Shown here: positions 2,535 through 35,394 of the stretch, in pieces | How positions within the stretch are numbered: position 1 is the stretch's first letter | Layout of the letters: each line of letters begins with the position of its first letter | The notes under the pieces: model-generated | Database searches by the model: none | Seen by the model: only the letters and a program-made list of their open reading frames with translations | Told to the model about the DNA's origin: nothing | DNA from: a bacterium | GTDB taxonomy: Bacteria > UBA9089 > CG2-30-40-21 > SBAY01 | Length of the DNA: 35,394 nt | Direction of reading: 5' to 3' | NCBI GenBank assembly: GCA_040757115.1 | Contig: JBFLYA010000012.1 | Span: 1 to 35,394 of the forward strand | Position numbers and translations under genes: made by a program

Positions 2535-2612
2535 AGGCCCGTGGCTCAATTTGGTTAGAGCATCGGTCTCCAAAACCGAGGATTACAGGTTCGAGTCCTG
2601 TCGGGCCTGCCA
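2535..2612 (+). tRNA. tRNA-Trp (CCA)
   Basis: Acceptor stem AGGCCCG/CGGGCCT, anticodon loop CTCCAAA, T-arm GGTTCGAGTCC and encoded 3' CCA. Confidence 0.97.
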
Positions 2613-3773: not shown

Positions 3774-4288
3774 CAGACCTCGAAAGCAGAATTAACTTGA
3801 CAAAATGAGAAAGATAAAGATTATGTTATTATAAAAGTTATTATGGCAAGACCACAAGACCATGGAGAGTACAATACCAAGGTGCAATATATCATGTAAT
3901 GTCCAGAGGGGTGGCTCAACAGGAGATATTTCGTATTGAAGATGACTATCATCGATTTTTAGACTATCTTGAGAAGAGTGTGGATAAATATGGATTAGAG
4001 ATATTTGCTTTTGTGCTAATGTCGAATCATTATCATTTATTTGTGCGAACAAAGGAGGCAAATCTTTCTAATGCACTACAATGGTTGCAAACAGAAAGGG
4101 ATGTAGCCATTTATATATTATATATAGTCATACTGGATTGAGTAATAAAGAGATAGGTGAGATATTTGGAGTAAGTCCAACAGCGATAGGTAAGGCAAGT
4201 ATCCGAGTAAGAAATCAGATGAGCGACCATAAAGGATTTAAAAAGAAGGTAGAAGATATAGTTAATTCTGCTTTCGAGATCTGACCCC
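3774..4288 (+). mobile_element. Decayed HUH (Y1/RAYT-like) element with 24-bp inverted ends
   Basis: CAGACCTCGAAAGCAGAATTAACT (3774-3797) versus AGTTAATTCTGCTTTCGAGATCTG (4260-4283), 23/24 inverted match. Followed by a duplicated TGACCCCAATAT. Confidence 0.7.
3843..4284 (+). pseudogene. REP-associated-type tyrosine transposase (Y1_Tnp plus C-terminal HTH), frameshifted and internally deleted
   Basis: MARP.WRVQYQGAIYHVMSRG after removing an 8-bp duplication (CAAGACCA). HUH motif LMSNHYHL. Abrupt jump to a C-terminal HTH (TGLSNKEIGEIFG) with a second frameshift. Confidence 0.85.
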
Positions 4289-4311: not shown

Positions 4312-4470
4312 TGGTTTGTCCTTTGGGATAGGAGGACAGCCCTTGCCCCTGCGGTTAAAAAGGCAAAGGAACTTGAGGAAAGGGAAGAAAGGATAGAAAA
4401 GGCGCTCAAGGAATATGCGATTCAACAACCTAAATTAGCAGCAGTTTTAAGAGAAGTTGGAATTTTGTAA
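4312..4470 (+). pseudogene. Orphan 3' fragment of a TM/coiled-coil hypothetical protein (WFVLWDRRTALAPAVKKAKELEEREERIEKALKEYA...GIL*)
   Basis: Protein-like frame with a stop but no start or RBS. Begins at the transposase element edge. Confidence 0.5.
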
Positions 4471-4494
4471 AAACTTGACTAAAGATGAAACACT

Positions 4495-4630
4495 TATGTT
4501 CACAGCGAGTGGACATAAATGAAGAGGAAAATTAATGGGACGCAGATTTTCGCAGATAAACACAGATGAATTAGAGAATTAGATTTTTAACTTTGTGTGT
4601 CTTTGTGTAAAGAAAACTATTTTCAGGAAA
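4495..4630 (+). mobile_element. Single type-B unit (ATG-hairpin head, cargo, ATTTTCAGG tail)
   Basis: TATGTTCAC..GTGGACATAAATGAAGAGGAAAATTAATGGGACGCAGATTT matches 13756-13809. Ends ATTTTCAGGAAA. Confidence 0.65.
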
Positions 4631-4675
4631 AAACAATAACTTTGTTCTTTGACAATTTAATATGTTTTTTTTGTG

Positions 4676-4705
4676 TTGACAGAGGAAAGAGAGTAGTGGT
4701 ATAAT
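4676..4705 (+). promoter_or_regulatory. Sigma70-type promoter with extended -10
   Basis: TTGACA-18 nt-TATAAT with a TGn extension. Confidence 0.65.
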
Positions 4706-4727
4706 GGATAAGTGATGAGGTGAAGAG

Positions 4728-4937
4728 ATGGGGAAGAAAGATAGAAGACAGAAGTCAGAAGTCAGAGAACAGAAAAAGAGGAAGTGGAAGGTTCATCTTA
4801 AAATTCCAAAGTTTCTCATTCCAAAGGATGAGCCGATTGTGCCAAAGGCATTTACTCCAATAGATTATGTGGGTGGGATAGTGGTATTTTTTATCTGCGG
4901 GAGAGTATATCTATATACGATAGAGGAAATGGAATAA
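4728..4937 (+). pseudogene. Short ORF resembling the N-terminus of a DUF2723/TMEM260-like membrane glycosyltransferase, truncated
   Basis: GAGGTG RBS, basic N-terminus and a TM segment ending VYLYT, where DUF2723 domains typically begin. Stops immediately afterwards. Confidence 0.4.
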
Positions 4938-4938
4938 T

Positions 4939-6813
4939 ATGGGTAAGAGGAAAAAGAAAATAAAGAAAATTAATCAAAAAACTCAAAAATCAATAATTAA
5001 AGATTTGTTAAGAAAACGATTATTTAAAAAAGAGAATTATATTATAGCAGGGATACTCATTTTTGCGTTTATTCTTCGATTAATTCACCTTTTTCAAATG
5101 CAAAGTAATTATCCCGAATTTTACTCACCTAACCCAGGAACAGATATGGGAATGTATGATAAAGCTGCTATGGAGATAGTTCATGGTAATCCAATAAAAG
5201 GTCCATTTTATTATAATCCTTTGTATTATTATTTCTTAGCCTTAAATTATTATTTATTTGGACATAACCTATTTATTATAAGATTAATCCAGGCATTATT
5301 AGGAATTATTACAGGTATATTAACATATTTTATTGCTAAAAAGATATTCAATGAAAAGGTAGCTATAATTTCTCTTTTGCTTTATGCCTTATGTGGTTAT
5401 CTTATATATTATGAAGGAGTACTCTTATCAATAAGTTTAACTACTTTCTTATGTGTAGCATCTATTTGGTTCTTTTTTCAAGCAAGGGAGAAAAAATCAA
5501 ATAAAAGATTTATCATTGGAGGTATGTTATTAGGACTGGCGACTCTTTCTCAACCTAATACTATTCTTTTTCTTCCATTTGTTCTTTTATGGATATTATT
5601 AGAGTTGAAAGAGGATGTAATAAAAAGAAGATTACAAAGATGTGCTATTGTTCTTTTAGCCTGTTTTGCAGCTATTTCTCCGATTACTATTAAAAATTAC
5701 CTTGATTCAGGAAGATTTGTTTTAATCACAACAAGTGGGTCTTTTAACTTTTGGTTAGGTAATCACGAACATTCATCAGGATGGTTTGATTTTTTTGATA
5801 GAGATTTAGAAAGACTTGAAGAAAATAAAAAGAGTGATAAGAAAATAAATGATGTTTATATAGAAGATGTGATAAGATTTATTAAAAAAGATCCACTAGA
5901 TTATCTAAAACTTTTCATAAAAAAGATACTTTTATTCTGGGGAGAATGGGATATACCTCATCAGGTACATTATGGGAAAGGTAAATTTTACTCTCCTTTA
6001 TTAAAATGCCCATTTATTCTTGATTTTGGTTTATTAGCAACATGGGGAGTTGCTGGAATATTTCTTTCTCTTAAGAGATGGTTGAAGAAAGGATTATTAC
6101 TTTATTTTTTTATTTTTGCATATAGCTTTTCAGTAGTGATTATAATGGTTAATGGAAGATATCGTCTTCCTGTGGTCCCTTTTCTTATAATCTTTGCGGG
6201 TGTTTTATTCATTTATTTATATGAGAAATTTAAAAAACGAAGATTTATCTCTCTATTCTTTTCTTTCTGGATATTAATCTTCTCAATTCTATTTGTAAAT
6301 TCTCAATTTGTTTATGCTAAAATATTTTGTATAATTAACCCTAATGGAATGTATATAGAAAGGGATAATACCCTTTTTATTAGCGATAATAGTGAAAAAT
6401 GTGCTTGGGAAGAAACAATTTCTATAAATTCACCTAATATGAAACTTAAAAAGGAATTCATTTTAATAAATGATATCTCATTTTTTAAAGAAGGGAAATT
6501 GTCCTTTGATTATATTTTTCAAGGAAATGGACATTTCATTTGTAGTATTAATGGGATAGATTCTCCACCAGCAATTTTATCATCGGATGGATTTATACAT
6601 AATATAAGATTTAAATTCCCTCCTTATTTATTAAAAAGAGGATTAAATAGTATCATTTTTAAAATTACAAATGAAGGAAAGTTAGATATACCTGTCAGTA
6701 AATATTATAATTATGAAAGATCCTATATTTATGATGGGATAAAGTGGAAAAAGATAAATGGGGAATATTTAATTCAATTAGAATTGATAAAATTTAAAAA
6801 GGAGGATTTATAA
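4939..6813 (+). CDS. GT-C fold glycosyltransferase (ArnT/PMT, GT39/GT83-like) with soluble C-terminal domain
   Basis: TDMGMYD after TM1, YNPLYYYFL, multiple TM helices, GRYRLPVVPFL. Paralogous to 33101-34951. Confidence 0.85.
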   Translation: MGKRKKKIKKINQKTQKSIIKDLLRKRLFKKENYIIAGILIFAFILRLIHLFQMQSNYPEFYSPNPGTDMGMYDKAAMEIVHGNPIKGPFYYNPLYYYFLALNYYLFGHNLFIIRLIQALLGIITGILTYFIAKKIFNEKVAIISLLLYALCGYLIYYEGVLLSISLTTFLCVASIWFFFQAREKKSNKRFIIGGMLLGLATLSQPNTILFLPFVLLWILLELKEDVIKRRLQRCAIVLLACFAAISPITIKNYLDSGRFVLITTSGSFNFWLGNHEHSSGWFDFFDRDLERLEENKKSDKKINDVYIEDVIRFIKKDPLDYLKLFIKKILLFWGEWDIPHQVHYGKGKFYSPLLKCPFILDFGLLATWGVAGIFLSLKRWLKKGLLLYFFIFAYSFSVVIIMVNGRYRLPVVPFLIIFAGVLFIYLYEKFKKRRFISLFFSFWILIFSILFVNSQFVYAKIFCIINPNGMYIERDNTLFISDNSEKCAWEETISINSPNMKLKKEFILINDISFFKEGKLSFDYIFQGNGHFICSINGIDSPPAILSSDGFIHNIRFKFPPYLLKRGLNSIIFKITNEGKLDIPVSKYYNYERSYIYDGIKWKKINGEYLIQLELIKFKKEDL

Positions 6814-12261: not shown

Positions 12262-12972
12262 ATGGCTCGTTGCGGTAAAAAGTTTTTAGAAAAAAGTAAA
12301 CTGGTAGATAAAGAAAAATTATATGATATTGATGAAGCACTTGACCTGCTTAAACAAACCTCCTGTGCTAAATTTGATGAATCAATAGAGATAGCAATAA
12401 GGTTAGGCGTCAACCCAAAACACGCTGACCAACAGGTGCGTTCTACGGTAATTCTAAGGCATGGCACAGGTAAATCTCAACGAATAGCGGTTTTTGCTAA
12501 AGGAGAAAAGGTAAAAGAGGCAGAAGAAAATGGTGTGGAGATAGTTGGTGCCGAAGACTTAATTGACCGTATAAAAAAAGGGTTTTTAGATTTTGATGTC
12601 GCTATCGCTACCCCAGATATGATGCGTGATGTCGGACAGTTGGGTAAAATCCTTGGACCACGAGGACTTATGCCTAATCCAAAAGCAGGCACCGTCACCT
12701 TTGATGTCGGAAAAACAATTAAGGAGATTAAAAAAGGTAAGATTGAATTTAGATGTGATTCGTTTGGGATAGTCCACTCGGCTATCGGCAAAGTTTCATT
12801 TTCAAAGGAAATGCTTTATGATAATTTTAAAGATTTTGTCTTAGCTATCCTTAAGGTAAAACCAGCCACGGTTAAAGGACAATATGTTAAAGGTATCGCT
12901 TTATCTACAACAATGGGACCCGGCATAAAACTTGACACAAAGGTAACAAAGAGATTGCTTGAAGAAGGCTAA
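12262..12972 (+). CDS. rplA: 50S ribosomal protein L1
   Basis: [31 protein letters not shown]. Confidence 0.98.
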
Positions 12973-13027
12973 AGATGATATATTTTCTATAATGAAGATT
13001 ATAATTCTTTGAAAAGGGGTAAATAAA

Positions 13028-13546
13028 ATGCGACCAGCAATTATTAAAAAAGAAAAACAGGTTAGCGAATTAAAAGAGAAATTATCTAAGACATCTTCGG
13101 CTATTTTAACAGATTATCGAGGTCTAACCGTTAAAGAAATTACAGATTTAAGACGCAAATTCAGAACCGCAGGCATAGAATATAAAATCATAAAAAACAA
13201 CATCATCTTTAGAGCGGTTAAAGAAAGTGACCTCGATGCCTTAAGTGAATACCTACAGGGACCTACGGCCATTGCTTTTAGTCTAAATGACCCGGTGGCT
13301 CCAGTTAAATTCTTAATAGATTTCTCCAAAGAATATAAAAAACTTGAACTTAAAGCAGGGATTATTCAAGGTAAGGTTCTAAAGGCTGATGAACTAACCC
13401 AGGTATCCAAGTTACCACCTAAAGAAGTATTAATTGCCCAGGTAGTAGGGGGAATGAAAGCACCGTTAGTCGGTGTAGTTAATGTCTTAAGTGCGCCAAT
13501 AAGGTCATTGGTTAATGTATTAAAGGCGATTGAGGGGAAAAAATAA
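13028..13546 (+). CDS. rplJ: 50S ribosomal protein L10
   Basis: DYRGLTV, KIIKNN, GPTAIAFS, plus gene order. Confidence 0.96.
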   Translation: MRPAIIKKEKQVSELKEKLSKTSSAILTDYRGLTVKEITDLRRKFRTAGIEYKIIKNNIIFRAVKESDLDALSEYLQGPTAIAFSLNDPVAPVKFLIDFSKEYKKLELKAGIIQGKVLKADELTQVSKLPPKEVLIAQVVGGMKAPLVGVVNVLSAPIRSLVNVLKAIEGKK

Positions 13547-14136
13547 CCAGGACCAAAGACTATAGACCGAAGACCAAAGGCAAAAAACAGCGGGTAGCTG
13601 GTAGTTTCACGCCAAGCACGCAAAGGACGCAAAGGAAAATAAGGGAAAAAATTACCTTTGCGTCCTTTGCGTGAAAAAACTGTTTTCAGGGGAATGTAGT
13701 TTTGTAAATCTGTGTAATCTGCGAAATCTGCGGATTATTTTCAGGAGAAACCGGGCATGTCCACGGTGGTGGACACAAACGACGATGAAAATTAATGGGA
13801 CGCAGATTTACAGGATTTACAAGATTTTAAAGAAAAACCACTAAGGCACTATAAAAACATCAAGAAACTCTAAGGAAATAACTATAGAAATACAATATAA
13901 AAAATTAATTTTAATCCTGTTCATCTGCGAAAATCTGCGTCCTAATTTACATTTTCAGGGGAAACGGACATGAGCCAGGGCTCACAAAGGGCAATGAAAA
14001 TGGGAGAAAGACAACCCCCTAACCCCCTTTATTAAGGGGGAATATCTGTTCTACACCAGAGGATACGAGTCTGTGGATACTATACTAATTCGCTAATCTC
14101 TAATTCACTAATTCGCTATTTTCAGGGGAAACAGGG
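13547..14136 (+). repeat. Tandem array of type-B units with variable hairpin cargo
   Basis: TTTTCAGG(A/G)GAA motif near 13683, 13737, 13951 and 14118. Full junctions ATTTTCAGGRGAAA..CATG-hairpin-ACAAA..ATGAAAAT at 13737-13792 and 13951-14001. Confidence 0.8.
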
Positions 14137-14514
14137 ATGAGTAGAATTGTAAAGAAAATCGAAATTGAAGGGAAAGAAGTTATGGCACTGTTTGATACTG
14201 GTGCAATGCATACTTATGTCTGCAATGAAATTGTGGGTAGTGCCCCGACAATAATTATCCCGGAGCCGTATAAGGTTGCATTTGATGGGAGAATAATTGA
14301 AGTCAAAAAACTCTGTCTTTTATGGGGTAAAATTGAAGGCAGAGGATTAGATATGGAGGCAGTGCCGATAGATGACATCGGGAGAATAAATGGAAATAAG
14401 ATAGATGTGGTCATTGGCGCATTAACTATGGAAAAGTGGGAAATAATCCCTAATCCAAAAGATGGAACATTAGATTTAACAGGACTCAAACGACGTGAAT
14501 TTATTGAGTTTTGA
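14137..14514 (+). CDS. Retropepsin-like (clan AA) single-domain aspartic protease
   Basis: ALFDTGA catalytic motif and VVIGA C-terminal motif, 125 aa. Confidence 0.85.
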
Positions 14515-14588
14515 AAAGTAATAATTGGGCTATGGTAACTAATTACTATTCACCAATTACCAGTTACCAAAATATAGGAGGTGAAAAA

Positions 14589-14978
14589 ATGGCAACTGCT
14601 ATTAAAAGCAAAGAGGAGATTATTGATGCTATCTCTAATATGACAGTTCTGGAACTCTCAGAATTAGTTAAGGAATTAGAGAATAAATTTGGGGTATCTG
14701 CGGCAATTCCTATGGCTATGGGACCAACGGTAACACAAGCCGTCCCAGAAGCAGAAAAGGAAGAAAAAACTGAGTTTGATGTTGTTTTAGCCAGTTTTGG
14801 TGAGAATAAAATCCAGGTGATAAAAGAAATTAGAACTATTACCTCTTTAGGATTAAAAGAAGCTAAAGAATTAGTAGAAGGCGCTCCACAGCCAGTGAAA
14901 AAAGGTATTCCAAAAGAAGAGGCTGAAGAAATCAAGAAAAAATTAGAAGCCGCAGGAGCGAAGGTAGAGATTAAGTAA
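14589..14978 (+). CDS. rplL: 50S ribosomal protein L7/L12
   Basis: [51 protein letters not shown] before ATG 14589. Confidence 0.98.
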
Positions 14979-15125: not shown

Positions 15126-18100
15126 ATGCTTAAGCAAGAACGGGTTTCTTTTGGAAAAATAAAAGAGGTCATAGATGTCCCATCATTAATTGCTATTCAA
15201 AAGGATTCTTTTGAATGGTTTTTGCAAAAGGATGTGCCTCCAGAGCAAAGGAAACCTCAGGGATTACAAAAGGTATTTTTAGAGACTTTTCCCATTATAG
15301 ATTTTAATGAAAAAGTAGTCTTAGAATTCGTTGACTATAGTCTTGGTGAACCAAAATATGCGGAGGAAGAATGTCGAGATAGAGATATAACTTATGGAGT
15401 TCCATTACGAGTCCGATTACGATTAATCTGTCGTGAGACAGGTGTCATTCAGGAACAAGAAATCTTTATGCGAGATATTCCTTTAATGACCGAACGGGGA
15501 ACATTTATTATTAATGGGGCTGAACGCGTCATTGTCAGCCAGATGCACCGTTCTCCAGGGGTTTATTTTGACTATGACCCATCAACTCGATTATACTCAT
15601 CCAGGGTTATCCCTTATCGAGGGGCATGGTTAGAATTTGAATTAGACACTAATAATATTCTCTTTGCAAGATTAGGACGCAAAAGAAAAATCATTGCAAC
15701 TACCTTTATTCGAGCCATTGGTTATTCTACTATCGAAGATATACTAAATCTTTTTTTCCCGGATCAAATTCGAATAGATAAAGTGAACGAAAATTTAGTT
15801 GGACTTCGATTAGCCCAGCAAGTAATAAATAAAGAAGAGAACGAAGTATATCGTCCAGGGATGAAGATTACCAATACGCTCTTGAATATTTTAAAGAAAC
15901 AACGGATTAAAAAGATAAAGATATTAGATGTGGAGAGTTCATTTATATTAAATACATTAGAACGAGATGATACCAATTCTACGGATGAAGCCCTGATTAA
16001 GATTCATAACCTGATGCGTATCGGGGAACCACCTAATATTGAAAATGCTCAACAGACCTTTTACCGATACTTCTTTGATCCACTTCGCTATGATTTATCC
16101 GAGATAGGTCGGTATAAAATTAATCAAAAATTGGGACTGTCAATTTCAGAAGAAGTCACAACATTGACTAAAGAAGATATAGTAGAGACGGTCAAATATA
16201 TGATTAAATTGATTAAAAAACAAGGGGAAATAGACGATATTGACCATCTTGGGAATCGGCGTGTCAGGTCTGTTGGAGAATTACTACAAAATCAATTACG
16301 GATAGGGATGTCAAGATTAGAACGAAGTATCCGTGAACGGATGGCAATCCAGGATATAATGACAATGAAACCACATACCGTCATTAATATCAAACCAGTT
16401 ACCGCCGCAATCAATGAATTTTTTGGCTCAAGCCAGCTCTCTCAATTTATGGACCAAACAAATCCCTTAGCCGAATTAACTCATAAACGAAGATTATCTG
16501 CTTTAGGTCAGGGTGGGTTATCTAAAGAAAGAGCAGGGTTTGAGGTTCGTGATGTCCATTACTCTCACTACGGGAGAATATGTCCAATCGAAACGCCTGA
16601 AGGACCTAATATTGGACTAATTGTATCTCTATGCGTTTATGGAAGAGTAAATAGATTAGGTTTTATTGAAACTCCCTATCGGAAAGTCTTAGACAGCAAA
16701 GTTACTAATCAAATTGAATATCTAACTGCGGATAAAGAACAAAAACATAATATTGCTCAGGCAAGTAGTAAAATAGGGAAAAATGGTGAGTTTATAGAGG
16801 AGGCAGTTGCGGCAAGGTTTCGAGACGATTTTCCATTAGTTACTCATGATAAAGTGGATTATATGGATGCCTCTTTAAAACAGATTATTAGTGTTGGAAC
16901 AGCATTAATTCCTTTCCTGGAACATGATGATGCCAATCGTGCTTTGATGGGGTCTAATATGCAGCGCCAGGCAGTCCCATTACTCGTTAGTGAATCTCCT
17001 TTAGTTGGCACAGGCATAGAACAATATATTGCCAGAGATTCCGGCATCGTGATTATCGCCCCTGTTGATGGCATAATAACTCGGGCGACGGCAAGTGAGA
17101 TTGTATTAAAAGGTAAGGATAAGAAAGAATATTCTTATAACTTATTGAATTTTAAAAGGTCTAATCAGGCAACCTGTATTCATCAAAAACCTATTGTTAA
17201 AAAGGGAGAACAAATCTCAAAAGGTCAACCTTTAACTGAAGGCACGGCGACTGACAATGGCGAACTGGCATTAGGAAGAAATGTCCTGGTGGCATTTATG
17301 CCCTGGGAAGGATATAATTTTGAAGATGCCATCCCTATTTCCGAAAGGTTAGTTAAAGAAGATATTTTTACTTCAATTCATATTGAAAGATATGAAATAG
17401 AGGCAAGGGATACTCAACTTGGCCCAGAGCAAATTACCGCCGATATTCCTAATCTGGGCGCTGAAGCACTGAAAAATCTTGATGACCGCGGCATTATTAG
17501 AATTGGTGCCATGGTTAAATCAGGCGATATATTAGTTGGTAAGGTTACTCCAAAAGGGGAGACAGAACTTTCTCCAGAATATAAATTACTTCATTCTATA
17601 TTTGGTGAAAAGGTCCGCGAAGTTCGGGATACCTCACTTCATCATCCTTATGGAAGTGAGGGAATAGTCCTTGATGTTAAGTATTTCGCCACCAGGCAGG
17701 GCGATGACCTTCCACCTGGCGTGGAAGAATTAGTTAAAGTCTATGTGGCAACTAAACGAAAGATTATGGTTGGTGATAAAGTTGCCGGCAGACATGGAAA
17801 TAAAGGTGTTATCGCTAAAATCTTACCTGAAGCAGATATGCCTTTTCTTGAAGATGGCACACCAGTAGATATGGTTTTGAATCCTTTGTCAGTTCCTTCA
17901 AGAATGAATATCGGCCAGATATTAGAAACTCATCTTGGCTGGGCCGCTCATAAATTAGGAATTAAAACTACCTCCCCGGTATTTGATGGAGCAACTGAAG
18001 AAGAAATCAAAGACTATCTTAAAAAAGCAAACTTACCTGAAGATGGCAAGGCTTACCTTTATGATGGAAAAACAGGAAAAAGATTTAAGGATAAAATTAC

Positions 18101-18548
18101 GGTTGGCTATATTTACATGATGAAATTAATTCATTTAGTAGAGGATAAAATTCATGCTCGCTCTATTGGTCCTTATTCATTAGTCACACAACAACCACTG
18201 GGTGGTAAGGCTCAATTTGGTGGACAACGACTTGGTGAAATGGAGGTCTGGGCATTAGAGGCTTATGGTGCCTCGCATCTGCTCCAGGAATTTTTAACTG
18301 TAAAATCAGATGATATTATTGGTCGGGCAAAGGTATATGAAGCAATTGTTAAAGGCGAAAATGCCGCAGGACCCGGCGTGCCTGAATCTTTTAATGTCCT
18401 ATTCCACGAACTTCAAGGATTAGCCTTAGATGTTAAGGTCTTAGATGAAAAAGGGAAACCTATCGATGTTAAAAAACTCAACGAAGGCCGACGCACACCA
18501 CCAGTCACTATGAAATCTCAAGAACATTTGATAAAACCTATGTTTTAA
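15126..18548 (+). CDS. rpoB: DNA-directed RNA polymerase beta subunit
   Basis: [56 protein letters not shown]. Confidence 0.99.
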
Positions 18549-18616
18549 ATTGGTAATGGGTAACGGTTGAATGGTAGATGATAACTGGTAACCATTTAAC
18601 CAATTACTATTCACCA

Positions 18617-18990
18617 TAGGGTTCTGCAAAATAGGATTTGGGGGAGACAATAAATAAATATTAAATATCAAATATTAAATATCAAAATGCAAAATTACAA
18701 ATCAAATTTCAAATTGGTAATATCTTTGCTTCAAGTATTTTAACGCTGAAAGGAAAGAGATAATTTTACTGAACTGTGGCAAAGATAGTTGATAGTTTAT
18801 AGTTGATAGTTTATAGTTGATAGTAGATAGTTGAAGGACTATAGACTATAAACTATAAACCATAAACTATAAACTATACACTATAAACTATAAACGAGTT
18901 TTGCATTTTGCTCTTTGGAGGAAATTGATAAAAATAGAGGTTTTAAATACCCGCTTAAAAACTACAGTTTCCTAGTTTTGCAGAACCCTA
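18617..18990. mobile_element. Type-D MITE-like element between rpoB and rpoC
   Basis: Perfect 15-bp TIR TAGGGTTCTGCAAAA including terminal TA. Cargo has CAAAATGCAAAA/TTTTGCATTTTG and GATAGTT/AACTATA heptamer hairpins. Sits inside an ACCATTC/TGGTAA repeat tract. Confidence 0.8.
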
Positions 18991-19020
18991 ACCATTCACC
19001 AAAAAGAGGAGGGATTTATC

Positions 19021-22000
19021 GTGAATAAAGAAGTAATGCAAGAACCAAAACAAACTTTTGAGTCTCTGTTTTCAACAATTGATATGACTAACTTTGCCGC
19101 TATTAGTATAGGACTTGCCTCACCAGAAATAATTAAAAGTTGGTCTTATGATAAGGTAAAGAAACCCGAAACAATAAATTATAGAACCTTTAGACCAGAA
19201 CGAGATGGCCTATTCTGTGAGCGGATATTTGGTCCAAATAAAGACTTTGAATGCTTCTGCGGTAAGTATAAAAGTATGCGGTATAAAGGGGTTATTTGTG
19301 ATAGATGTGGTGTAGAAGTAACATATTCTGAGGTTCGAAGACAACGAATGGGACATATCGAATTAGTTACCCCGGTATCTCATATCTGGTATTTTAAGCG
19401 AGTCCCATCTCCAATGGCAGTTGTATTGGATATTACTGTTAGAGACCTTGAACGAGTCCTGTATTACGAGGGATATATTGTGCTTGACCCGGGTAATGAT
19501 GTACCTCTTAAAAAGAAAGATGTTATTAATGAAGACGAATATAGAACCTTCAAAGAGAAATATGGCGGGAATTTTGAAGTAGGTATGGGGGCGGAGGCAA
19601 TTAAAAAATTGTTGAAAGAGATTAATCTTAAAGAAGAAGTAGAAAACCTGCGATTAGAAATGGAAGGAGACTACTCTTATCAAAAACGCCGCAAAATCGT
19701 CCGACGACTTGAAATATTAGAATCTTTCTTGCGAAGTGGAAATAAACCTGAATGGATGATTTTAGATATTATCCCGGTTATCCCACCTGAATTACGACCT
19801 ATGGTACAATTAGATGGTGGTCGATTCGCTACATCTGATTTAAATGACCTGTATCGTCGGGTAATAAATCGCAACAACCGATTAGAACGACTCATCGCCT
19901 TAAAAGCTCCAGAGATAATTATTCGCAATGAAAAAAGAATGATGCAGGAATCGGTTGATGCCTTATTTGATAATGGCAGAAGAGGCAGACCTGTAGCCGG
20001 CACTGGAAATAGACCACTAAAATCTTTATCAGATATGCTCAAAGGTAAACAGGGTAGATTCCGTCAAAATCTATTAGGAAAACGAGTAGATTATTCAGGT
20101 CGCTCGGTCATTGTCGTTGACCCAACATTTAAACTATTTCAATGTGGCTTACCTAAAAGAATGGCTTTAGAATTGTTTAAACCTTTTATTATGCGGAAAT
20201 TAGTCGCAGATAATTTAGCCCATAATATTAAAAGTGCTAAACGCATGATAGAACGAGAAAATCCTGAAGTCTGGGATGTTTTAGAAGAAGTTATCTCACA
20301 ACATCCGGTCCTTCTAAATCGTGCCCCAACTTTGCACCGTGCGGGAATCCAGGCGTTTATACCTGTCTTAATCGAAGGAGATGCAATTAAAATCCATCCT
20401 TTAGTTTGTCCAGCATTTAATGCTGATTTCGATGGAGACCAGATGGCTGTCCATGTTCCTTTATCAATTGAATCTCAAATAGAAAGCCAGATATTAATGC
20501 TTTCCGCTTATAACTTATTATCCCCGGCTAACGGAAGACCTTTAGTTGCACCTACTCAAGATATAGTCCTGGGATTGTGTTATCTAACTAAAGAAAGACC
20601 AGATGATTTAGGACAGGATAAAAAACTCACTAATATTCACGAGGCTTTAATGGCTTATGAAGAAGGAATAATAAGTTTAAATGCCAGGATTTGGATTTGT
20701 ATTAATGGTAAAAACTTACAGACGACTATTGGACGCATCATATTCAATGAATGCTTACCTGAAGAACTTCAATTTATTAATGAAAAGGTGGATAAGAAAA
20801 AGATAGGTCAAATAGTCGCTGAGGCATACCGTAAATGTGGAATGAGCAAAACCGTTGATTTACTGGATAAGGTGAAACAACTTGGATTCAAATACGCCAC
20901 GGAGTATGGAGTATCTATTGGCATAGATGATATTAAAGTCCCACCTCAAAAACCAGAGTTATTAAAACAAAGTTATAAAGAGATAGAAAAGATTTCACAA
21001 CAATATCATCAAGGAATTATTACGGATGAAGAAAGATATAATAAAATAGTGGATTTATGGACATATATCGGTGATGAAATATCTAAGGTAATGTTTGAGG
21101 GAATGGGCAATGATAAAAATGGGTTTAATCCTATTTATATGATGGTTGACTCTGGGGCAAGAGGCAGTAAACAGCAAGTTAGACAATTAGCCGGAATGAG
21201 AGGACTTATGGCTAAACCCTCCGGAGAAATCATAGAATTACCTATTATTGCTAATTTTAGAGAGGGACTTACTGTCTTAGAATACTTCATTTCAACTCAC
21301 GGCGCCAGAAAAGGTTTGGCTGATACCGCCTTAAAAACCGCTGATGCTGGTTATTTAACGCGTCGATTAGTTGATGTTTCTCAAGATGTTATTATTACTG
21401 CTGATGATTGTGGCACGATTAATGGGATGATAGTTGAGGCAATAAAAGAAGGTGATGAAGTTATCGAACCATTAGGTGACCGTATCCTCGGCAGAGTCTC
21501 TTTGGATGATGTCGTGAACCCGATGACAGGTGAAGTTATTATCAAGGCTAATGAGGAGATAAATGAAGAAAATGCTCAGGCTATTGAAGATGTAGAAATT
21601 GACCGCATCAGAATTCGCACCGTTCTTACCTGTGAGACACAAAGAGGGGTATGTGCTAAATGTTATGGCCGAAATTTAGCTACCGGGAAATTAATAGATA
21701 TAGGCGAACCGGTGGGAATTGTTGCCGCACAATCTGTCGGAGAACCAGGAACACAATTGACAATGAGAACCTTCCATATCGGTGGAACCGCATATCGACA
21801 GGTAGAAGAAAGAGAAATTAGATTGCCTTATGAAGTTGAAATCGTCGAACTACCGAAAAGATTGATATATTTAGAAGATGGAAGTATGGTTGCGGCCAGA
21901 GCAGGCGAACTCGTGCTACGAAAGGTGCTAAAAGAATATAAATTATCTCCAACTACAAAATTTACTGTTTTTGATGGTTTGTGGGTAAATGCCGGAGATA

Positions 22001-33100: not shown

Positions 33101-34951
33101 TTAATACACCGGATTAGAAAGTAATTCTAATTGAATCATTAACTCTCCTTCGACCTTTTCCCAGTTAATCCCATCTTCAGAAAATGAGGAACGACCAAAA
33201 TTGTAATAATTATCTACCATTATTCCAACCTCTGCCCCTTCTATGACAGTTAAAGTGATAATATTTCGCCCTTTTTTAAGGATTAAATTAGGGTTTTGGA
33301 ACTTAAATCGCACCTGGCGAACAAAAGGACCATAAGGAATATTTTTACAATCTACCACGGAAAATAATATATCATTCATTTTGATTATTAATTTACCTCT
33401 ATCTGTGCAGGAATAGGTTAGACTTATACCTGCAGTATCAAATTTAGAGACATCCTTATTGATAATAATTTCTTTTTTTAGAATTTTCTGCGGTGTGTCC
33501 AATGTCTTTTTTATATCGCCGTGCCAATCGCCGCTATCATCCCGAAACAAAAATCCTTCCCGTTTTTCAAGACAAAATCCATCTGGATAAATCAACGGAT
33601 ATGTCCAGCCATAAAATGTGTGGAAATCAATAACCGTATAAAGAACCAGAAAAAGGATTAATGTTGCAAAAAAGGAGATTAATCTTTTACGCTGGATTTT
33701 TTTATACCAATAATAAATTGTCACGCCGGCAAAGATACTCAAATAAGGAACAATCGGCACTCTAAATCGAGATTGAATAAAGAAGAAAACAATGGCACTC
33801 ATATAGCCAAAGATAACTAAATATAAAAGAAATAAGTTTTTATTTAATCTTCCAAGACTCAGGAATAATCCCATTATTCCTAATGAAGCAACCAGCCCAA
33901 AGGGAATCATTATTCTAAGTAAAGGAGATAGTTTTAAAAATCGGTCATAAACGACATCGTTATCTGGAATTTCATAAGCATTCCAGAACACGGTAATTTT
34001 TTTAAATAAAAGTCGAAGGTATTTCTCAGGTTTTTCCTTGATAAATCTTATGGCATCCTCGCTGTAAAAGTTTTTATTTTTACTACTCATCTCATCCGCA
34101 TAAGGAGGTAAATGATAAAAACCTTCAGAATCCTCATTATTCCCAGCCCAAAAGGCAACAGGTCCCGTGGCGGTCAAAAGAATAAATTTACCGCTATATT
34201 TATAATTACGGTAGGTCACCGGGGCAAAGGTTAGAGCCATACCTAAAACAATAAGCCCACCGGCACATAAAAATCTCTTGTTCATACCCAGTCTAATCAA
34301 TAACCATAATAATAAAAATGGAAAAACTAAAAGAGTAGTGGCACGAGATAATGATGAAAGGGCTAAAATTACCCCTGCGGCAAAATACCATCTCATAGAA
34401 TTTTGTGAGACACTTTTTAAAAGGACAAAGACACTTAACAGGAGTAAAAAACTATCTAAAACGGTTGTCAAAAGCAAGGTTTCATAAACCATAAAGGCAC
34501 CATAAAGGCTACAAATCCCGGCGGCAATCATTCCAATATTTTTATTGAAAAGTTGTTTTGCAATTAAATAGACAATCAGACAAGTTCCTAATCCCATAAA
34601 TATCTGAACAATTATTGCCTTAAATGGCTCATGCCCAACAAAGGAATAGATTAAAGCCAGAAAATAAAAATATAACGGATTATAACTATAAGGCGTTTTC
34701 GATAGCGTTCCATCTAATACCTGCATAGCTAAGGCATCATAACAACCACTATCTGTGCCTTCAAAATGGAGAAAATTAGGGTCGTTATTTTTTACCTGAA
34801 ATAAAAAAATAAGCCTCAAGATTAACCCAATTAAAAGAATGCCAACTAAAATAAATTTATGTTTATGTTTTGATGGGAATTTTTTTATCTTATCTTTGAA
34901 AGAGATATGAGGTAGAGGAGTCTTTTTTTTGTGTAATTTTTTTTTAGACAT
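33101..34951 (-). CDS. GT-C fold glycosyltransferase (ArnT/PMT-like), paralog of 4939-6813
   Basis: TDSGCYD, YNPLYFYFL, SRFRVPIVPYL and a shared C-terminal domain ending ELMIQLEL. Start ATG 34951 after AGGAG; the ORF-track extension to 35059 is repeat DNA. Confidence 0.85.
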   Translation of the reverse strand: MSKKKLHKKKTPLPHISFKDKIKKFPSKHKHKFILVGILLIGLILRLIFLFQVKNNDPNFLHFEGTDSGCYDALAMQVLDGTLSKTPYSYNPLYFYFLALIYSFVGHEPFKAIIVQIFMGLGTCLIVYLIAKQLFNKNIGMIAAGICSLYGAFMVYETLLLTTVLDSFLLLLSVFVLLKSVSQNSMRWYFAAGVILALSSLSRATTLLVFPFLLLWLLIRLGMNKRFLCAGGLIVLGMALTFAPVTYRNYKYSGKFILLTATGPVAFWAGNNEDSEGFYHLPPYADEMSSKNKNFYSEDAIRFIKEKPEKYLRLLFKKITVFWNAYEIPDNDVVYDRFLKLSPLLRIMIPFGLVASLGIMGLFLSLGRLNKNLFLLYLVIFGYMSAIVFFFIQSRFRVPIVPYLSIFAGVTIYYWYKKIQRKRLISFFATLILFLVLYTVIDFHTFYGWTYPLIYPDGFCLEKREGFLFRDDSGDWHGDIKKTLDTPQKILKKEIIINKDVSKFDTAGISLTYSCTDRGKLIIKMNDILFSVVDCKNIPYGPFVRQVRFKFQNPNLILKKGRNIITLTVIEGAEVGIMVDNYYNFGRSSFSEDGINWEKVEGELMIQLELLSNPVY

Positions 34952-35360
34952 ACCATTCTCCTGAAAATAGGAAGTAGAGAGTAGAAAGTAGAGAGTAGAG
35001 AGAAAATCTTTCCTCCACCCTGTTTTTCCCCTATTTTCATTCTCCTGTTGTGAACCCACGGTTCATGAGCATTTCTCCTGAAAATCGGGACTTGGGACTC
35101 GGGAAGAAAGAAACTCTCAGCAATTCCCCCTTAATAAAGGGGGTTAGGGGGTTGTCCTTCTCCCATTTTCATTGCCCTTTGTGAGCCTTGGCTCATGTCC
35201 GTTTCTCCTGAAAATAGCCGTAAGAATAGAACACGGATGACACGGATTTAACGGATTTTCGCTGATTTTTTTCTCTTTTTTCTGTCTTCTATCTGCTCTC
35301 CGCGAATATCCGCATCATCAGCGTCATCAGCGTGCTATTATTTTTCATCGTCCTCGTATA
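34952..35360 (-). repeat. Tandem array of type-B units
   Basis: On the minus strand, full junctions ATTTTCAGGAGAAA..CATG-hairpin-ACAA..ATGAAAAT lie at 35215-35165 and 35085-35033, with a terminal ATTTTCAGGAGAA at 34968-34956. 35123-35215 matches 13951-14043 at 90/93. Confidence 0.85.
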
Positions 35361-35394
35361 ATATATATTGTTGGTCATTTTGAATGCCACAATC

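Follow-up and report, generated by a model that had tools for sequence, protein, structure and literature searches.

Introduction

Small repeats that lie between genes, among them REP, MIRU, BOX and Correia elements, were first recognized decades ago, and the questions of how most of them move and why they are tolerated are still open. Transposons of the IS200/IS605 type insert 3' of a short specific sequence without target duplication; they have no terminal inverted repeats, carry subterminal hairpins and use one active strand. Integrons recombine at core sites with the consensus RYYYAAC ... GTTRRRY, next to an intI gene. REP sequences and their BIME and REPIN clusters are, in the cited descriptions, thought to move as single strands via a Y1 HUH enzyme, RAYT (PMC2817692, PMC3116915).

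Here we analyze arrays of short hairpin repeats in a 35,394-nucleotide stretch of DNA from a groundwater bacterium (GTDB lineage Bacteria; UBA9089; CG2-30-40-21; SBAY01; assembly GCA_040757115.1, contig JBFLYA010000012.1, positions 1 to 35,394), hereafter the window. On balance, their sequence organization favors reading them as stacks of a lineage-specific, non-autonomous mobile unit of ~100-260 bp that is used in one orientation.

Results and Discussion

A three-part unit forms arrays in a ribosomal operon

The main array of the window lies inside a ribosomal operon, between rplJ and rplL. Each unit consists of a head, a long cargo hairpin and a tail, in that order. The head reads ACGnnCATG, then a 5-7-bp hairpin in which the stem sequence varies and the pairing is kept, then CACAAA-n5-ATGAAAAT. 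The cargo is a long hairpin, often with arms of short tandem repeats, and falls into ~12 partly mosaic families. The tail, ATTTTCAGGRGAA, combines an AU-rich stretch with a Shine-Dalgarno sequence. Units start with ACGCTCATG... and finish with ...ATTTTCAGGRGAA, ends that are not reverse complements of each other. The window features are as follows.

13547..13681 (+): opening of array 1, immediately past the rplJ stop codon and also kept in the sister species; a short-tandem-repeat arm (ggaccaaag...), then a cargo hairpin of the 'ctttgcg' family (D)
13682..13694 (+): tail copy GTTTTCAGGGGAA, one mismatch, with cargo directly after it and no head
13695..13736 (+): short cargo (tgtagttttgtaaatctgtgtaatctgcgaaatctgcggatt)
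13737..13749 (+): tail ATTTTCAGGAGAA, AU-rich stretch plus Shine-Dalgarno AGGAG
13750..13792 (+): head 1, accgggCATG, hairpin TGTCCAC/GTGGACA, CACAAA-cgacg-ATGAAAAT; junction (13737-13792) 60.8 bits
13793..13950 (+): cargo E, in which 'atctgcg'/'cgcagat' repeats form the arms of a long hairpin; shares 91% identity with a copy from another genus
13951..13963 (+): tail ATTTTCAGGGGAA
13964..14001 (+): head 2, acggaCATG, hairpin TGAGCC/GGCTCA, CACAAA-gggca-ATGAAAAT; junction (13951-14001) 68.6 bits
14002..14117 (+): cargo B (gggagaaagacaaccccc...ctaattcgct), the usual follower of the AGCC-type head
14118..14130 (+): terminal tail ATTTTCAGGGGAA, putative ribosome-binding site of a 125-aa ORF with its ATG at 14137
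14137..14514 (+): 125-aa retropepsin-like ORF; DTGA motif by eye, no Pfam match
34956..34968 (-): terminal tail of array 2 (ATTTTCAGGAGAA then tggtATG), putative ribosome-binding site of a PMT_2 glycosyltransferase gene, 33101-34951 (-)
34969..35032 (-): cargo of the 'ctactttc' family (C')
35033..35085 (-): tail and head junction, hairpin TGAACC/GGTTCA, 70.7 bits
35073-35085 (-): tail within that junction
35086..35164 (-): cargo with a B-type left part and 'cccgagt' repeats
35165..35215 (-): tail and head junction, hairpin TGAGCC/GGCTCA, 69.6 bits
35203-35215 (-): tail within that junction
35216..35360 (-): opening cargo of array 2, 'ccgtgt'/'gcggat' repeats; what is left of a decayed head (gacgatgaaaaat) lies on its 5' side
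4485..4631 (+): degenerate solo unit; head 4485-4532 (18.1 bits), cargo 4533-4618, tail-like ATTTTCAGGAAAA 4619-4631

A preliminary description of this DNA had proposed an asymmetric head-to-tail unit running from a CATG-hairpin head to a ATTTTCAGG tail, with no cognate enzyme gene linked to it in the window. Both points are borne out, and every array feature it listed was found in its place.

The 125-aa ORF, placed between the array and rplL, does not belong to the unit. Like a small coiled-coil gene found adjacent to units, it is a member of a small paralogous family, and in these families few copies have a tail just upstream. Across 12950-14650, promoter-like sites occur at the level of shuffled sequence (6 vs 5.7), and there is one weak terminator-like hairpin, in cargo B on the sense strand. 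Rfam models at the gathering score match nothing at the arrays; the sole match in the window is a tRNA at 2535-2609.

The repeated junction is a tail abutting the next head

Linkage between the parts sets the unit boundaries. A recurrent cargo family precedes 222 of 231 exact tails, and the A/G position of the tail depends on that preceding cargo: it is G in 25/30 tails after cargo B and A in 12/14 after each of cargos D and I. Relative to the head that follows, the A/G split is about even, i.e., independent of it. The AGCC hairpin, in turn, is followed by cargo B in 27 of 33 cases. Since hairpin type is linked to the cargo after it and the tail A/G to the cargo before it, the junction is where one unit's tail abuts the next unit's head. 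The preliminary description had treated this ~50-bp palindromic junction as a site in its own right, a view that the linkage and 45 array-initial heads contradict. After the 232 exact tails of the genome comes a head (92), a start codon opening at least 60 codons (54) or something else (86). Of the 156 heads found, 109 have a tail in front; of the other 47, two are false matches. The remaining 45 are array-initial: unique DNA runs up to a GGAGAA-like hexamer with no ATTTTCA in front (GGAGAA 30, GGGGAA 4, GGAAAA 4, GGTGAA 3, others 4).

Units carry no genes of their own. From each of the 156 heads, the next tail lies within 250 nt except in seven cases (distances of 305-362 nt in five, 4591 nt in one and a larger distance in the last), and no gene-sized cargo or ORF of transposase size was found between head and tail. 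No autonomous copy was found among the contigs; only four have units at both ends, and all four are ordinary gene contigs.

The head hairpin conserves pairing rather than sequence

To score covariation, we took 49 distinct junctions, drawn from the window, from the sister species and from a further genus. Pairing in the inner helix holds in 95.7% of cells, and four of its seven pairs vary on both sides (58 cells). The covariation score is 0.217, compared with 0.050 after shuffling, and none of 500 shuffles reaches the observed value; sliding the partner by 1-3 columns drops pairing to 23-51% of cells. The earlier claim that the central hairpin keeps its pairing as its sequence changes thus stands. 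The outer ATTTTCA/TGAAAAT arms are nearly invariant and so provide no covariation evidence. Within a unit, the head TGAAAAT also forms a helix with the ATTTTCA of the tail, spanning the cargo between them; this base helix is present in 87 of 102 cargo hairpins.

These 102 hairpins fold more stably on the sense strand (mean -37 kcal/mol) than on the antisense strand (-31 kcal/mol). The sense fold contains 471 G-U pairs and 29 A-C mismatches, and the antisense fold 277 and 100, respectively. This bias is dominated by a few large cargo families and is therefore not independent evidence. In mRNA, the cargo hairpins might act as structured spacers ahead of an exposed ribosome-binding site. Predicted exposure does not differ significantly between tail-borne ribosome-binding sites and others (0.48 vs 0.43 unpaired, p = 0.18).

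Units are abundant in a few related genomes

The exact 13-nt tail ATTTTCAGGRGAA occurs 232 times in the 4.3-Mb genome, where the same motif written backwards occurs 0 times. The sister species carries 198 exact tails and a second genus 34; in 38 further relatives the count per genome is 0-7. Within the window, a 14-mer allowing up to two mismatches is found 10 times (1.97 in shuffles; 0/100 shuffles reach 10). A covariance model of the junction, as the preliminary description had proposed, gives at least 143, at least 143, 28 and 12 matches across four genomes of the family, and each of 37 other genomes has at most one. The four junctions of the window score 61-71 bits in the sense direction and ~13 bits in antisense.

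Searches with the tail plus the start of the head returned no match in viral contigs. The same query gave 14 matches in metagenome contigs; these were rejected, as each is a lone ribosome-binding site of an unrelated GC-rich gene and lacks the head hairpin. A literature search with three 13-mers returned no relevant paper, its sole match being a C. elegans GFP paper.

The arrays also coincide with assembly breaks: 76 of 924 contig ends fall in units, and in three sequencing runs from a single groundwater study the contigs end at the array, which is represented by short, high-depth pieces only. Cargo E has 91% identity between genera that share 77% identity in their rplJ genes.

Units lie directly after GGAGAA-like sites, usually Shine-Dalgarno sequences

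Comparison of two sister species reveals empty and filled versions of the same sites. In six such pairs (L024/C150, L031/C95, L051/C419, L040/C441, L106/C441 and L114/C21), the unit lies directly after a native GGAGAA-like site, and in at least four of the six this is the gene's own Shine-Dalgarno sequence. Three further pairs have whole units right after an existing tail (L108/C162, L110/C51 and L111/C46). At all 6 + 3 sites, insertion is 3' of a specific short target, directly after a GGRGAA-like sequence and without a regular target duplication. More generally, what precedes a unit on its 5' side is in most cases either the Shine-Dalgarno of the gene itself or an earlier unit's tail.

The 54 exact tails (of 232) that precede start codons stand 1-14 nt, mostly 2-6 nt, before them. 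At this normal distance from the start codon, the terminal tail takes over as the gene's putative ribosome-binding site. The Shine-Dalgarno character of the tail, and its putative use by real genes as judged by position, had been missed in the preliminary description. Between co-directional genes, 63 arrays are oriented with the genes and 6 against them, as counted on crude ORF maps, which also underlie the other gene-based counts.

Turnover of units is fast. Between two species with 94-99% identity in their genes, units have appeared, disappeared and been exchanged, and at least nine orthologous sites, both window arrays included, hold different units in the two sister species. Adjacent duplicated units occur, such as a tandem extra copy at L023/C35 that is joined at a 6-nt microhomology, AAAGGG. 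Not all insertions are tidy. The right junctions are unclean in three pairs (L027/C172, L051/C419 and L114/C21), with 4-8 native bases between the Shine-Dalgarno and the start codon changed or missing, and L106/C441 has an extra 12-bp duplication of a tail-like native site. Such junctions count against precise transposition, and they fit homology-driven joining as well as they fit an enzyme.

The enzyme families searched for do not track the units

HUH, IS110 or attC logic had been suggested in the preliminary description; no enzyme family of these kinds has a distribution that follows the repeats. The genome has seven Y1_Tnp matches, and around the six that lie beyond the window no head or tail occurs within 1.5-2.5 kb. 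The window copy (3881-4093) is a fragment ~400 nt from the decayed solo unit. Nor do Y1 genes follow repeat number across genomes: G004 has nine Y1 matches and one exact tail, and G003 has 34 tails and two Y1 fragments (21-28 bits). The IS200-like copies of G004 and G001 have distinct REP-like hairpins of their own on either side. No IS91-type Y2 transposase (PF04986) was found in G000 or G003. Reverse transcriptases occur in all six genomes of the family and so do not track the repeats either. Inverted or alternating orientation of the REP/REPIN type was absent from every array read, all units being direct, head to tail.

Models for the origin of the arrays

We infer that the units are small non-autonomous intergenic repeats that home to ribosome-binding sites. 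The head hairpin with its fixed flanks may be the feature that a mobilizing activity reads on a single strand. The nearest mechanistic analogy would be an HUH-type single-strand transposon: like such an element, the units would insert 3' of a short target, have ends that are asymmetric, carry a subterminal hairpin and leave no target duplication. Each tail would recreate the target, and a target remade by every tail would account for the head-to-tail arrays. Tentatively, we also propose a bolder possibility, about which we are more doubtful: that the units represent mobile DNA of a new class, with the Shine-Dalgarno sequence as its homing target. It would recognize a hairpin by structure only, integrate precisely 3' of AGGAGAA and replace the gene's ribosome-binding site, thereby creating the next target; its mover, whether an enzyme or an RNA-guided activity, would lie outside the known transposase families found here, and its units would cross genera in groundwater communities. 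Transposition of any kind has to contend with the failure to find a mobilizing enzyme, and with at least seven hairpin stem variants in one genome, which is unusual for a single sequence-reading transposase.

That same failure, together with the untidy junctions, speaks for spread without a dedicated enzyme, by microhomology-mediated template switching or gene conversion during replication, although we regard this as unlikely. A nascent strand ending in GGAGAA would re-anneal at a unit tail elsewhere, copy one or more units and return at the next GGAGAA; strong hairpins would promote the stalling, and units would be kept as a structured mRNA spacer plus ribosome-binding site. Consistent with this, 6-9 shared bases, (A)GGAGAA(AC), flank every insert on both sides, one native site resembles a whole tail (ATATTCAGGAGAT), the tandem copy at L023/C35 is joined at microhomology, and folding favors the sense strand. 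However, six bases of homology is very little for such frequent events. The genome contains 3709 copies of GGAGAA, yet readable array starts are at intergenic GGAGAA-like sites and only eight arrays lie inside ORFs of the crude map. Invariant flanks and compensatory hairpin changes across genera point instead to a specific recognition partner, and near-identical units in another genus would need transfer between genomes. Movement as cassettes by a site-specific recombinase (integron-like, IS110-type or other) through a circular intermediate, with the junction as attachment site and GGRGAA as crossover core, is very unlikely. It would suit head-to-tail arrays with a single conserved junction and variable cargo, and the cargo hairpins, variable in length with conserved 7-bp inverted ends, are reminiscent of attC. 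Integron integrases are indeed present in the genome, one of them full-length (368.6 bits against a cut-off of 265) alongside several broken copies. But the integron cassettes of this genome have canonical attC sites (...AAC / GTTA...) and include no heads or tails, and two relatives with strong integrase matches have one exact tail each. The inferred joining point, moreover, is at the junction edge rather than in the middle of the inverted arms, and of four IS110 genes just one is near an array, beside which it apparently landed.

Two further models fare worse. Ordinary MITEs, i.e., deletion derivatives of DDE transposons with terminal inverted repeats and a fixed target duplication that abut by chance, are already disfavored, and we give them very little credence. 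A GGAGAA-like hexamer does flank inserts on both sides, and a classical MITE family with 8-bp duplications lives in the same genomes. The preliminary description had named the abutted ends of a known IS-derived MITE as the competing explanation of the junction; abutted ends they are, but not those of such a MITE, given that the unit ends are not inverted repeats of each other and that left and right hexamers differ in 19 of the 29 rows scored as single units. In addition, the tail A/G follows the unit's own cargo, and GGGGAA is found in 87/232 tails compared with 4/45 left flanks. Equally improbable is that the arrays are immobile and arose in place as conserved regulatory leaders (attenuators or small leader peptides), despite an ATG at the right spacing after the tail and readable short ORFs of 12-21 codons. 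The T and G of this ATG are sequestered by the hairpin, and the short ORFs run in differing frames because hairpins of 10-15 nt do not add whole codons. In-place evolution is already contradicted by the empty and filled sites, that is, by presence, absence and replacement at orthologous sites of near-identical species.

Implications for small intergenic repeats

These units are an unusually clear case among small intergenic repeats, as their boundaries can be read from linkage and from empty and filled sites, and their apparent target is a ribosome-binding site. An element that brings a replacement ribosome-binding site could be harmless even in an essential operon, which would account for its presence between rplJ and rplL. 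If homing is enzymatic, the enzyme would be a new single-strand or site-specific activity that targets 6-7 bases. Otherwise, natural hairpin-driven template switching would be shaping 5' untranslated regions genome-wide. Either way, the units would be rewiring the translation signals of dozens of genes, and they fragment metagenome assemblies.

Comparison with described repeat families

The units share features with several described systems and match none of them in full. Like REP, BIME and REPIN sequences, they are short extragenic hairpins with conserved flanks, present in hundreds of copies and in mosaic clusters, often between the genes of an operon. In the cited accounts, however, the REPs of BIMEs and REPINs alternate in orientation and flank a RAYT gene (PMC2817692, PMC3116915), whereas the units are direct repeats and flank no Y1 gene. 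Neisseria REP2 and Borrelia IR sequences also lie immediately upstream of genes (PMC3184786). They have no sequence relation to the units, REP2 is reported to carry a promoter and to number a few dozen copies, and the portion of that source dealing with the two families does not describe tandem head-to-tail arrays, modular cargo or insertion at a Shine-Dalgarno (PMC3184786).

According to the same source, MIRUs resemble the units in being 40-100 bp long, lying inside operons and being co-transcribed with the genes around them; both empty and filled sites occur, with short direct repeats at filled sites, and we also count as a likeness their small ORFs that overlap neighboring genes (PMC3184786). 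As described there, MIRUs differ in that tandem copies are of one unit type, with no separate head, cargo and tail, no conserved Shine-Dalgarno tail and no covarying head hairpin (PMC3184786).

With integrons, the units share head-to-tail arrays, variable hairpins with conserved 7-bp inverted ends and strand-specific folding. Their core sites are different, since units end in TGAAAAT...ATTTTCA, unlike integron core sites, and their "cassettes" hold no genes. IS200/IS605 elements differ in having a transposase, TnpA (Y1), that acts on their ends, and similar hairpins at both ends; the units have no associated transposase, their head and cargo hairpins are unlike each other, and many stem variants coexist per genome. 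The likeness to this group lies in target-adjacent insertion without duplication, in ends that are not terminal inverted repeats, in subterminal hairpins and in a single active strand.

Arrays of hairpin units

The window carries two arrays of a composite repeat unit. A preliminary description had reported a cassette-like array with conserved palindromic junctions and variable hairpin cargo, and every feature that it listed is present on reading the window at 13400-14400, 34700-35394, and 4350-4750. Units consist of a head, a long cargo hairpin (its families include those lettered B, C, D, E, and I), and a tail that combines an AU-rich stretch with a Shine-Dalgarno sequence. The tail is the 13-mer ATTTTCAGGRGAA; a 14-mer, allowing up to two mismatches, occurs 10 times in the window compared with 1.97 times in shuffles, with no shuffle out of 100 giving as many. 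Four window tails are followed directly by a head: ACGnnCATG, a short hairpin, and CACAAA-n5-ATGAAAAT. The gene order around array 1 is nusG, rplK, rplA, rplJ, array 1, a 125-aa ORF, rplL, rpoB, rpoC. With rplJ upstream and rplL downstream, array 1 therefore lies inside a ribosomal protein operon. Rfam gave no match at either array.

Features of the window
2535-2609 (+): tRNA gene (Rfam 69.8 bits)
4315-4467 (+): C-terminal 51 residues of a small coiled-coil membrane protein
4676-4705 (+): near-consensus promoter, TTGACA-18 nt-TATAAT (by eye), 3' of a solo unit and 5' of the glycosyltransferase gene at 4939
13028-13546: rplJ
13547-14136 (+): array 1
13682 (+): tail copy with one mismatch
13737, 13951, 14118 (+): exact tails
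14137-14514 (+): 125-aa ORF, small and retropepsin-like (DTGA motif by eye, without Pfam match)
14533-14572: short-tandem-repeat hairpin, ggtaac/ttacca type, just 5' of the rplL ribosome-binding site
14590: rplL start, which retains its own AGGAGGTG ribosome-binding site
34956 to about 35360 (-): array 2, ending 4 nt ahead of the ATG of a PMT_2 glycosyltransferase gene
35215, 35085, 34968 (-): tails (5' ends)

Several neighbors of the arrays belong to families of their own. Retropepsin-like ORFs occupy 7 loci in the genome under study (G000), with one between rplJ and rplL and two at that position in its sister species, G001 (L001, about 390-752, -). The coiled-coil membrane protein has about ten further G000 matches, three of them in tandem on contig C178, and a full copy of its gene adjoins units in G001 (L031). 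Another locus of G001 (L030:1070-1450) shows an expansion of the ggtaac/ttacca repeat type by about 250 bp.

Units are numerous across the genome. G000 (4.32 Mb, 36.8% G+C, 462 contigs with the window as C24) holds 232 exact tails, followed by a head in 92 cases, by a start codon in 54 (opening at least 60 codons, 1-14 nt and mostly 2-6 nt after the tail), and by something else in 86. Allowing one tail mismatch, we find 278 arrays, with one tail in 186, two in 65, three in 17, and four to six in 10. These copy numbers are lower bounds, because the fragmented G000 and G001 assemblies break in units (of 924 contig ends, 76 are no more than 350-400 nt away from a head or tail). Cargoes are long hairpins of 53-257 nt including 7-bp arms (median 110), commonly with short-tandem-repeat arms (ctactttc, cccgagt, ctttgcg, atctgcg, ctctaat), and their folding energy is far below that of shuffled sequence. 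Many families chained together in clustering because cargoes are themselves mosaics.

Unit boundaries and insertion sites

Linkage, array starts, and empty or filled orthologous sites all agree on the limits of the unit. The type of head hairpin tracks the downstream cargo: AGCC stems precede cargo B in 27 of 33 cases, and AACC stems mostly precede cargo C. The A/G position of the tail tracks the upstream cargo (B with G, 25/30; D with A, 12/14; I with A, 12/14), while against the next head it splits about evenly. The unit is thus head, cargo, and tail. A recurrent cargo family lies directly 5' of 222 of 231 tails, so the 5' side of the tail is almost never unique DNA. A tail precedes 109 of the 156 heads; of the 47 heads without one, two are false matches. 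At the other 45, which begin arrays, unique DNA extends as far as a GGAGAA-like hexamer and gives way at once to ACGCT-CATG; none has ATTTTCA ahead of it, and five share one longer flank and so are not independent. The hexamers are GGAGAA (30), GGGGAA (4), GGAAAA (4), GGTGAA (3), GAGAA (2), GAAGAA (1), and GGAGAG (1).

Comparison with the sister species reveals empty sites. G001 belongs to the same genus, and its genes are 94-99% identical to those of G000; 61 of its loci yielded 78 collinear gaps, of which we inspected any that contained a tail or were empty in one species. In six pairs of G001 locus and G000 contig, one species has units where the other has a bare GGAGAA-like site.

Native (empty) sites in orthologous pairs
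L024/C150: gaccagGAGAAgatacc
L031/C95: tataGAGAAaATG
L051/C419: aaaGGAGAAAcatgATG
L040/C441: attaGGGGAAAgttATG
L106/C441: ATATTCAGGAGAT
L114/C21: GAAGGAGAAAtactgaa

Three further pairs (L108/C162, L110/C51, L111/C46) gained one to four whole units right behind an existing tail. All these inserts start directly 3' of GGRGA(A) and end with a tail. The hexamers to the left and right of a unit are unlike in 19 of 29 rows scored as single units, some of which are undercounted arrays, and GGGGAA occurs in 87 of the 232 tails versus only 4 of the 45 left flanks. This rules out a copied target duplication and makes GGRGAA the unit's own. The 50-bp palindromic junction is therefore the tail of one unit meeting the head of the next. 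It is conserved and its arms can pair as first drawn, but it is not itself a unit. Of the refuting condition set in advance, abutted ends of a known IS-derived MITE with ordinary target duplications, the abutted ends hold and the duplications do not.

A separate, classical MITE family does occur, with terminal inverted repeats GTAAC(C/T)(G/A)TTCAG...CTGAA..GTTAC and 8-bp target duplications. Copies lie at G000:C145:6076-6337, G000:C408:29750-30005, and L001:2054-2347 (G001, between rplA and rplJ), and in L028, L032, L047, and L053. Many differ in presence between the sister species, and one sits inside a tail motif (duplication TTCAGGAG).

These boundaries suggest that units integrate 3' of (A)GGAGAA through an activity that would read the head hairpin on a single strand, for which HUH-type single-strand transposition is the best analogy. 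Arrays would then grow because each tail presents a fresh target. Enzyme-free template switching at the 6-9 shared bases is the chief competing account. In its favor, right junctions are untidy in three pairs, and the native site of L106/C441 is itself tail-like.

Conserved pairing of the head hairpin

Covariation shows that pairing of the head hairpin is conserved while its sequence varies, as the preliminary description had proposed. In the 49 distinct junctions that the window, G001, and G003 (another genus) supplied, the inner helix is paired in 95.7% of cells, and four of its seven pairs show both-sided changes (58 cells). The covariation score is 0.217 versus 0.050 in shuffles, with 0 of 500 shuffles as high, and shifting partners by 1-3 columns lowers pairing to 23-51% of cells. 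Almost no variation is seen in the first two pairs (T-A, G-C) or in the flanks CA...CACAA. The outer arms are constant and so give no covariation evidence in either direction. One genome carries at least seven stem variants side by side. A covariance model of the junction scores window junctions at 61-71 bits in sense versus about 13 bits in antisense; it has at least 143 matches in G000, at least 143 in G001, 28 in G003, 12 weaker ones in G004 (a further family member), and no more than one in any of 37 other genomes.

Two pairings are open to the ATGAAAAT that ends a head: backwards with the preceding tail, or forwards over the cargo of the same unit with the ATTTTCA in that unit's tail. In 87 of 102 units the minimum-energy fold is closed by the forward helix, which is the sole option in single and array-initial units.

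Orientation and ribosome-binding sites

Arrays between co-directional genes follow gene direction in 63 cases and oppose it in 6, as judged on a crude ORF map with a 100-codon minimum. Seven lie between convergent genes, five between divergent genes, and eight inside ORFs of this map. The usual Shine-Dalgarno sequence of G000 is AGGAGG(T) (AGGAGG at 470 starts, GGAGGT at 323), and GGAGAA precedes 38 starts that have a tail and 160 that have none. The tail thus brings an AGGAG core behind an AU-rich stretch. Predicted exposure is similar at tail-borne sites and elsewhere (0.48 versus 0.43 unpaired, p = 0.18), although the 154 nt upstream of tail-borne sites are much more structured (-43 versus -28 kcal/mol). 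The hairpins vary from 10 to 15 nt in length, not in steps of three, so that short ORFs opened by the head ATG run in differing frames; they encode no conserved peptide.

Cargo folds carry a strand bias. Mean predicted fold energy is -37.2 kcal/mol in sense versus -31.2 in antisense, with sense better in 72 of 102. Among 88 distinct cargoes, sense folds contain 471 G-U pairs and 29 A-C mismatches versus 277 and 100 in antisense, counts dominated by a few large families. These modeled folds favor selection acting on the sense strand in single-stranded form, with mRNA the simplest case, where the hairpins would work.

Turnover and spread

Units have been gained, lost, and replaced between the sister species. 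They differ at nine or more orthologous sites (L022/C322, L034/C44, L017/C167, L028/C85, L097/C68, L113/C129, L099/C203, and both window arrays). In the rplJ-rplL array, the first two cargoes are common to both species and the remainder is wholly different. Adjacent duplications occur, with repeated blocks on C145, C98, C156, and C400; at L023/C35, an extra copy in G000 is joined through the 6-nt microhomology AAAGGG, leaving a hairpin-less junction. At G000:C167:9947-10133, an 80-nt 'tccgaa' repeat insert has a flanking 19-bp direct repeat (gaaacggagaataggagaa); the sister species has three units there.

The system is also present in a second genus: G003 has the tail, the head, and several of the cargo families of G000. 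Between the genera, cargo E shares 91% identity versus 77% at DNA level for rplJ, whose L10 protein is 70% identical. A non-coding cargo that outdoes a ribosomal protein gene in conservation is a sign of either transfer between lineages or continued homogenization. Outside the family, the motif occurs at background level only; viral contigs have none, and in metagenome contigs the only matches are 14 solitary ribosome-binding sites belonging to unrelated genes.

Search for an enzyme

No head-tail pair in G000 encloses a recombinase, a transposase, or any other gene, and no G000 contig resembles an autonomous copy. The earlier view that the window lacks a cognate enzyme holds, even with a Y1 (IS200/RAYT) fragment at 3881-4093. 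This seemingly broken gene (3881-4280, +) aligns at 30 bits to positions 4-74 of the 121-position profile; next, in a different frame, comes a stretch resembling, by eye, a DNA-binding helix-turn-helix. It is one of seven Y1 matches in G000; the remaining six have no heads or tails nearby. We rejected Y1 as mobilizer, since its gene number across the family does not correlate with the repeats and IS200-like copies are bordered by distinct hairpins of their own. Such elements, of about 640 bp, occur in L116, L117, and L119 (G004) and L120 (G001), flanked by REP-like hairpins of CCCCGAAGGGG and GCTCCAGAGGAGC types, both also found as solo repeats in G003 (L062).

IS110 has four matches, one adjoining an array. 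IS91-type Y2 is absent from G000 and G003, and reverse transcriptases occur in all six family genomes. G000 has one full-length integron integrase match (368.6 bits, cut-off 265) in a chromosomal integron (integrase G000:C322:13613-14995(-); cassettes 15237-19640, with canonical attC sites between small ORFs), and broken copies on C223, C423, C22, C251, and C18. The integrase was rejected as well: two relatives with strong integrase matches have just one exact tail each.

Comparison with known systems

Units fail the defining tests of REP/RAYT, DDE MITEs, attC cassettes, and IS91. The attC-like logic once proposed is not borne out, the canonical attC arrays of G000 being free of units. In the literature library searched, which was covered only narrowly for the system under other names, the three 13-mers have no relevant match and one irrelevant one. 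HUH-type (IS200/IS605) transposition inserts 3' of its target, without duplication, and involves asymmetric ends and a subterminal hairpin; units share all four traits. IS200/IS605 and REP/RAYT are the nearest mechanistic analogies. The nearest functional relatives, as described by Delihas (2011, PMC3184786), are Neisseria REP2 and Borrelia IR, repeats that bring a ribosome-binding site to a downstream gene, and MIRUs, repeats within operons.
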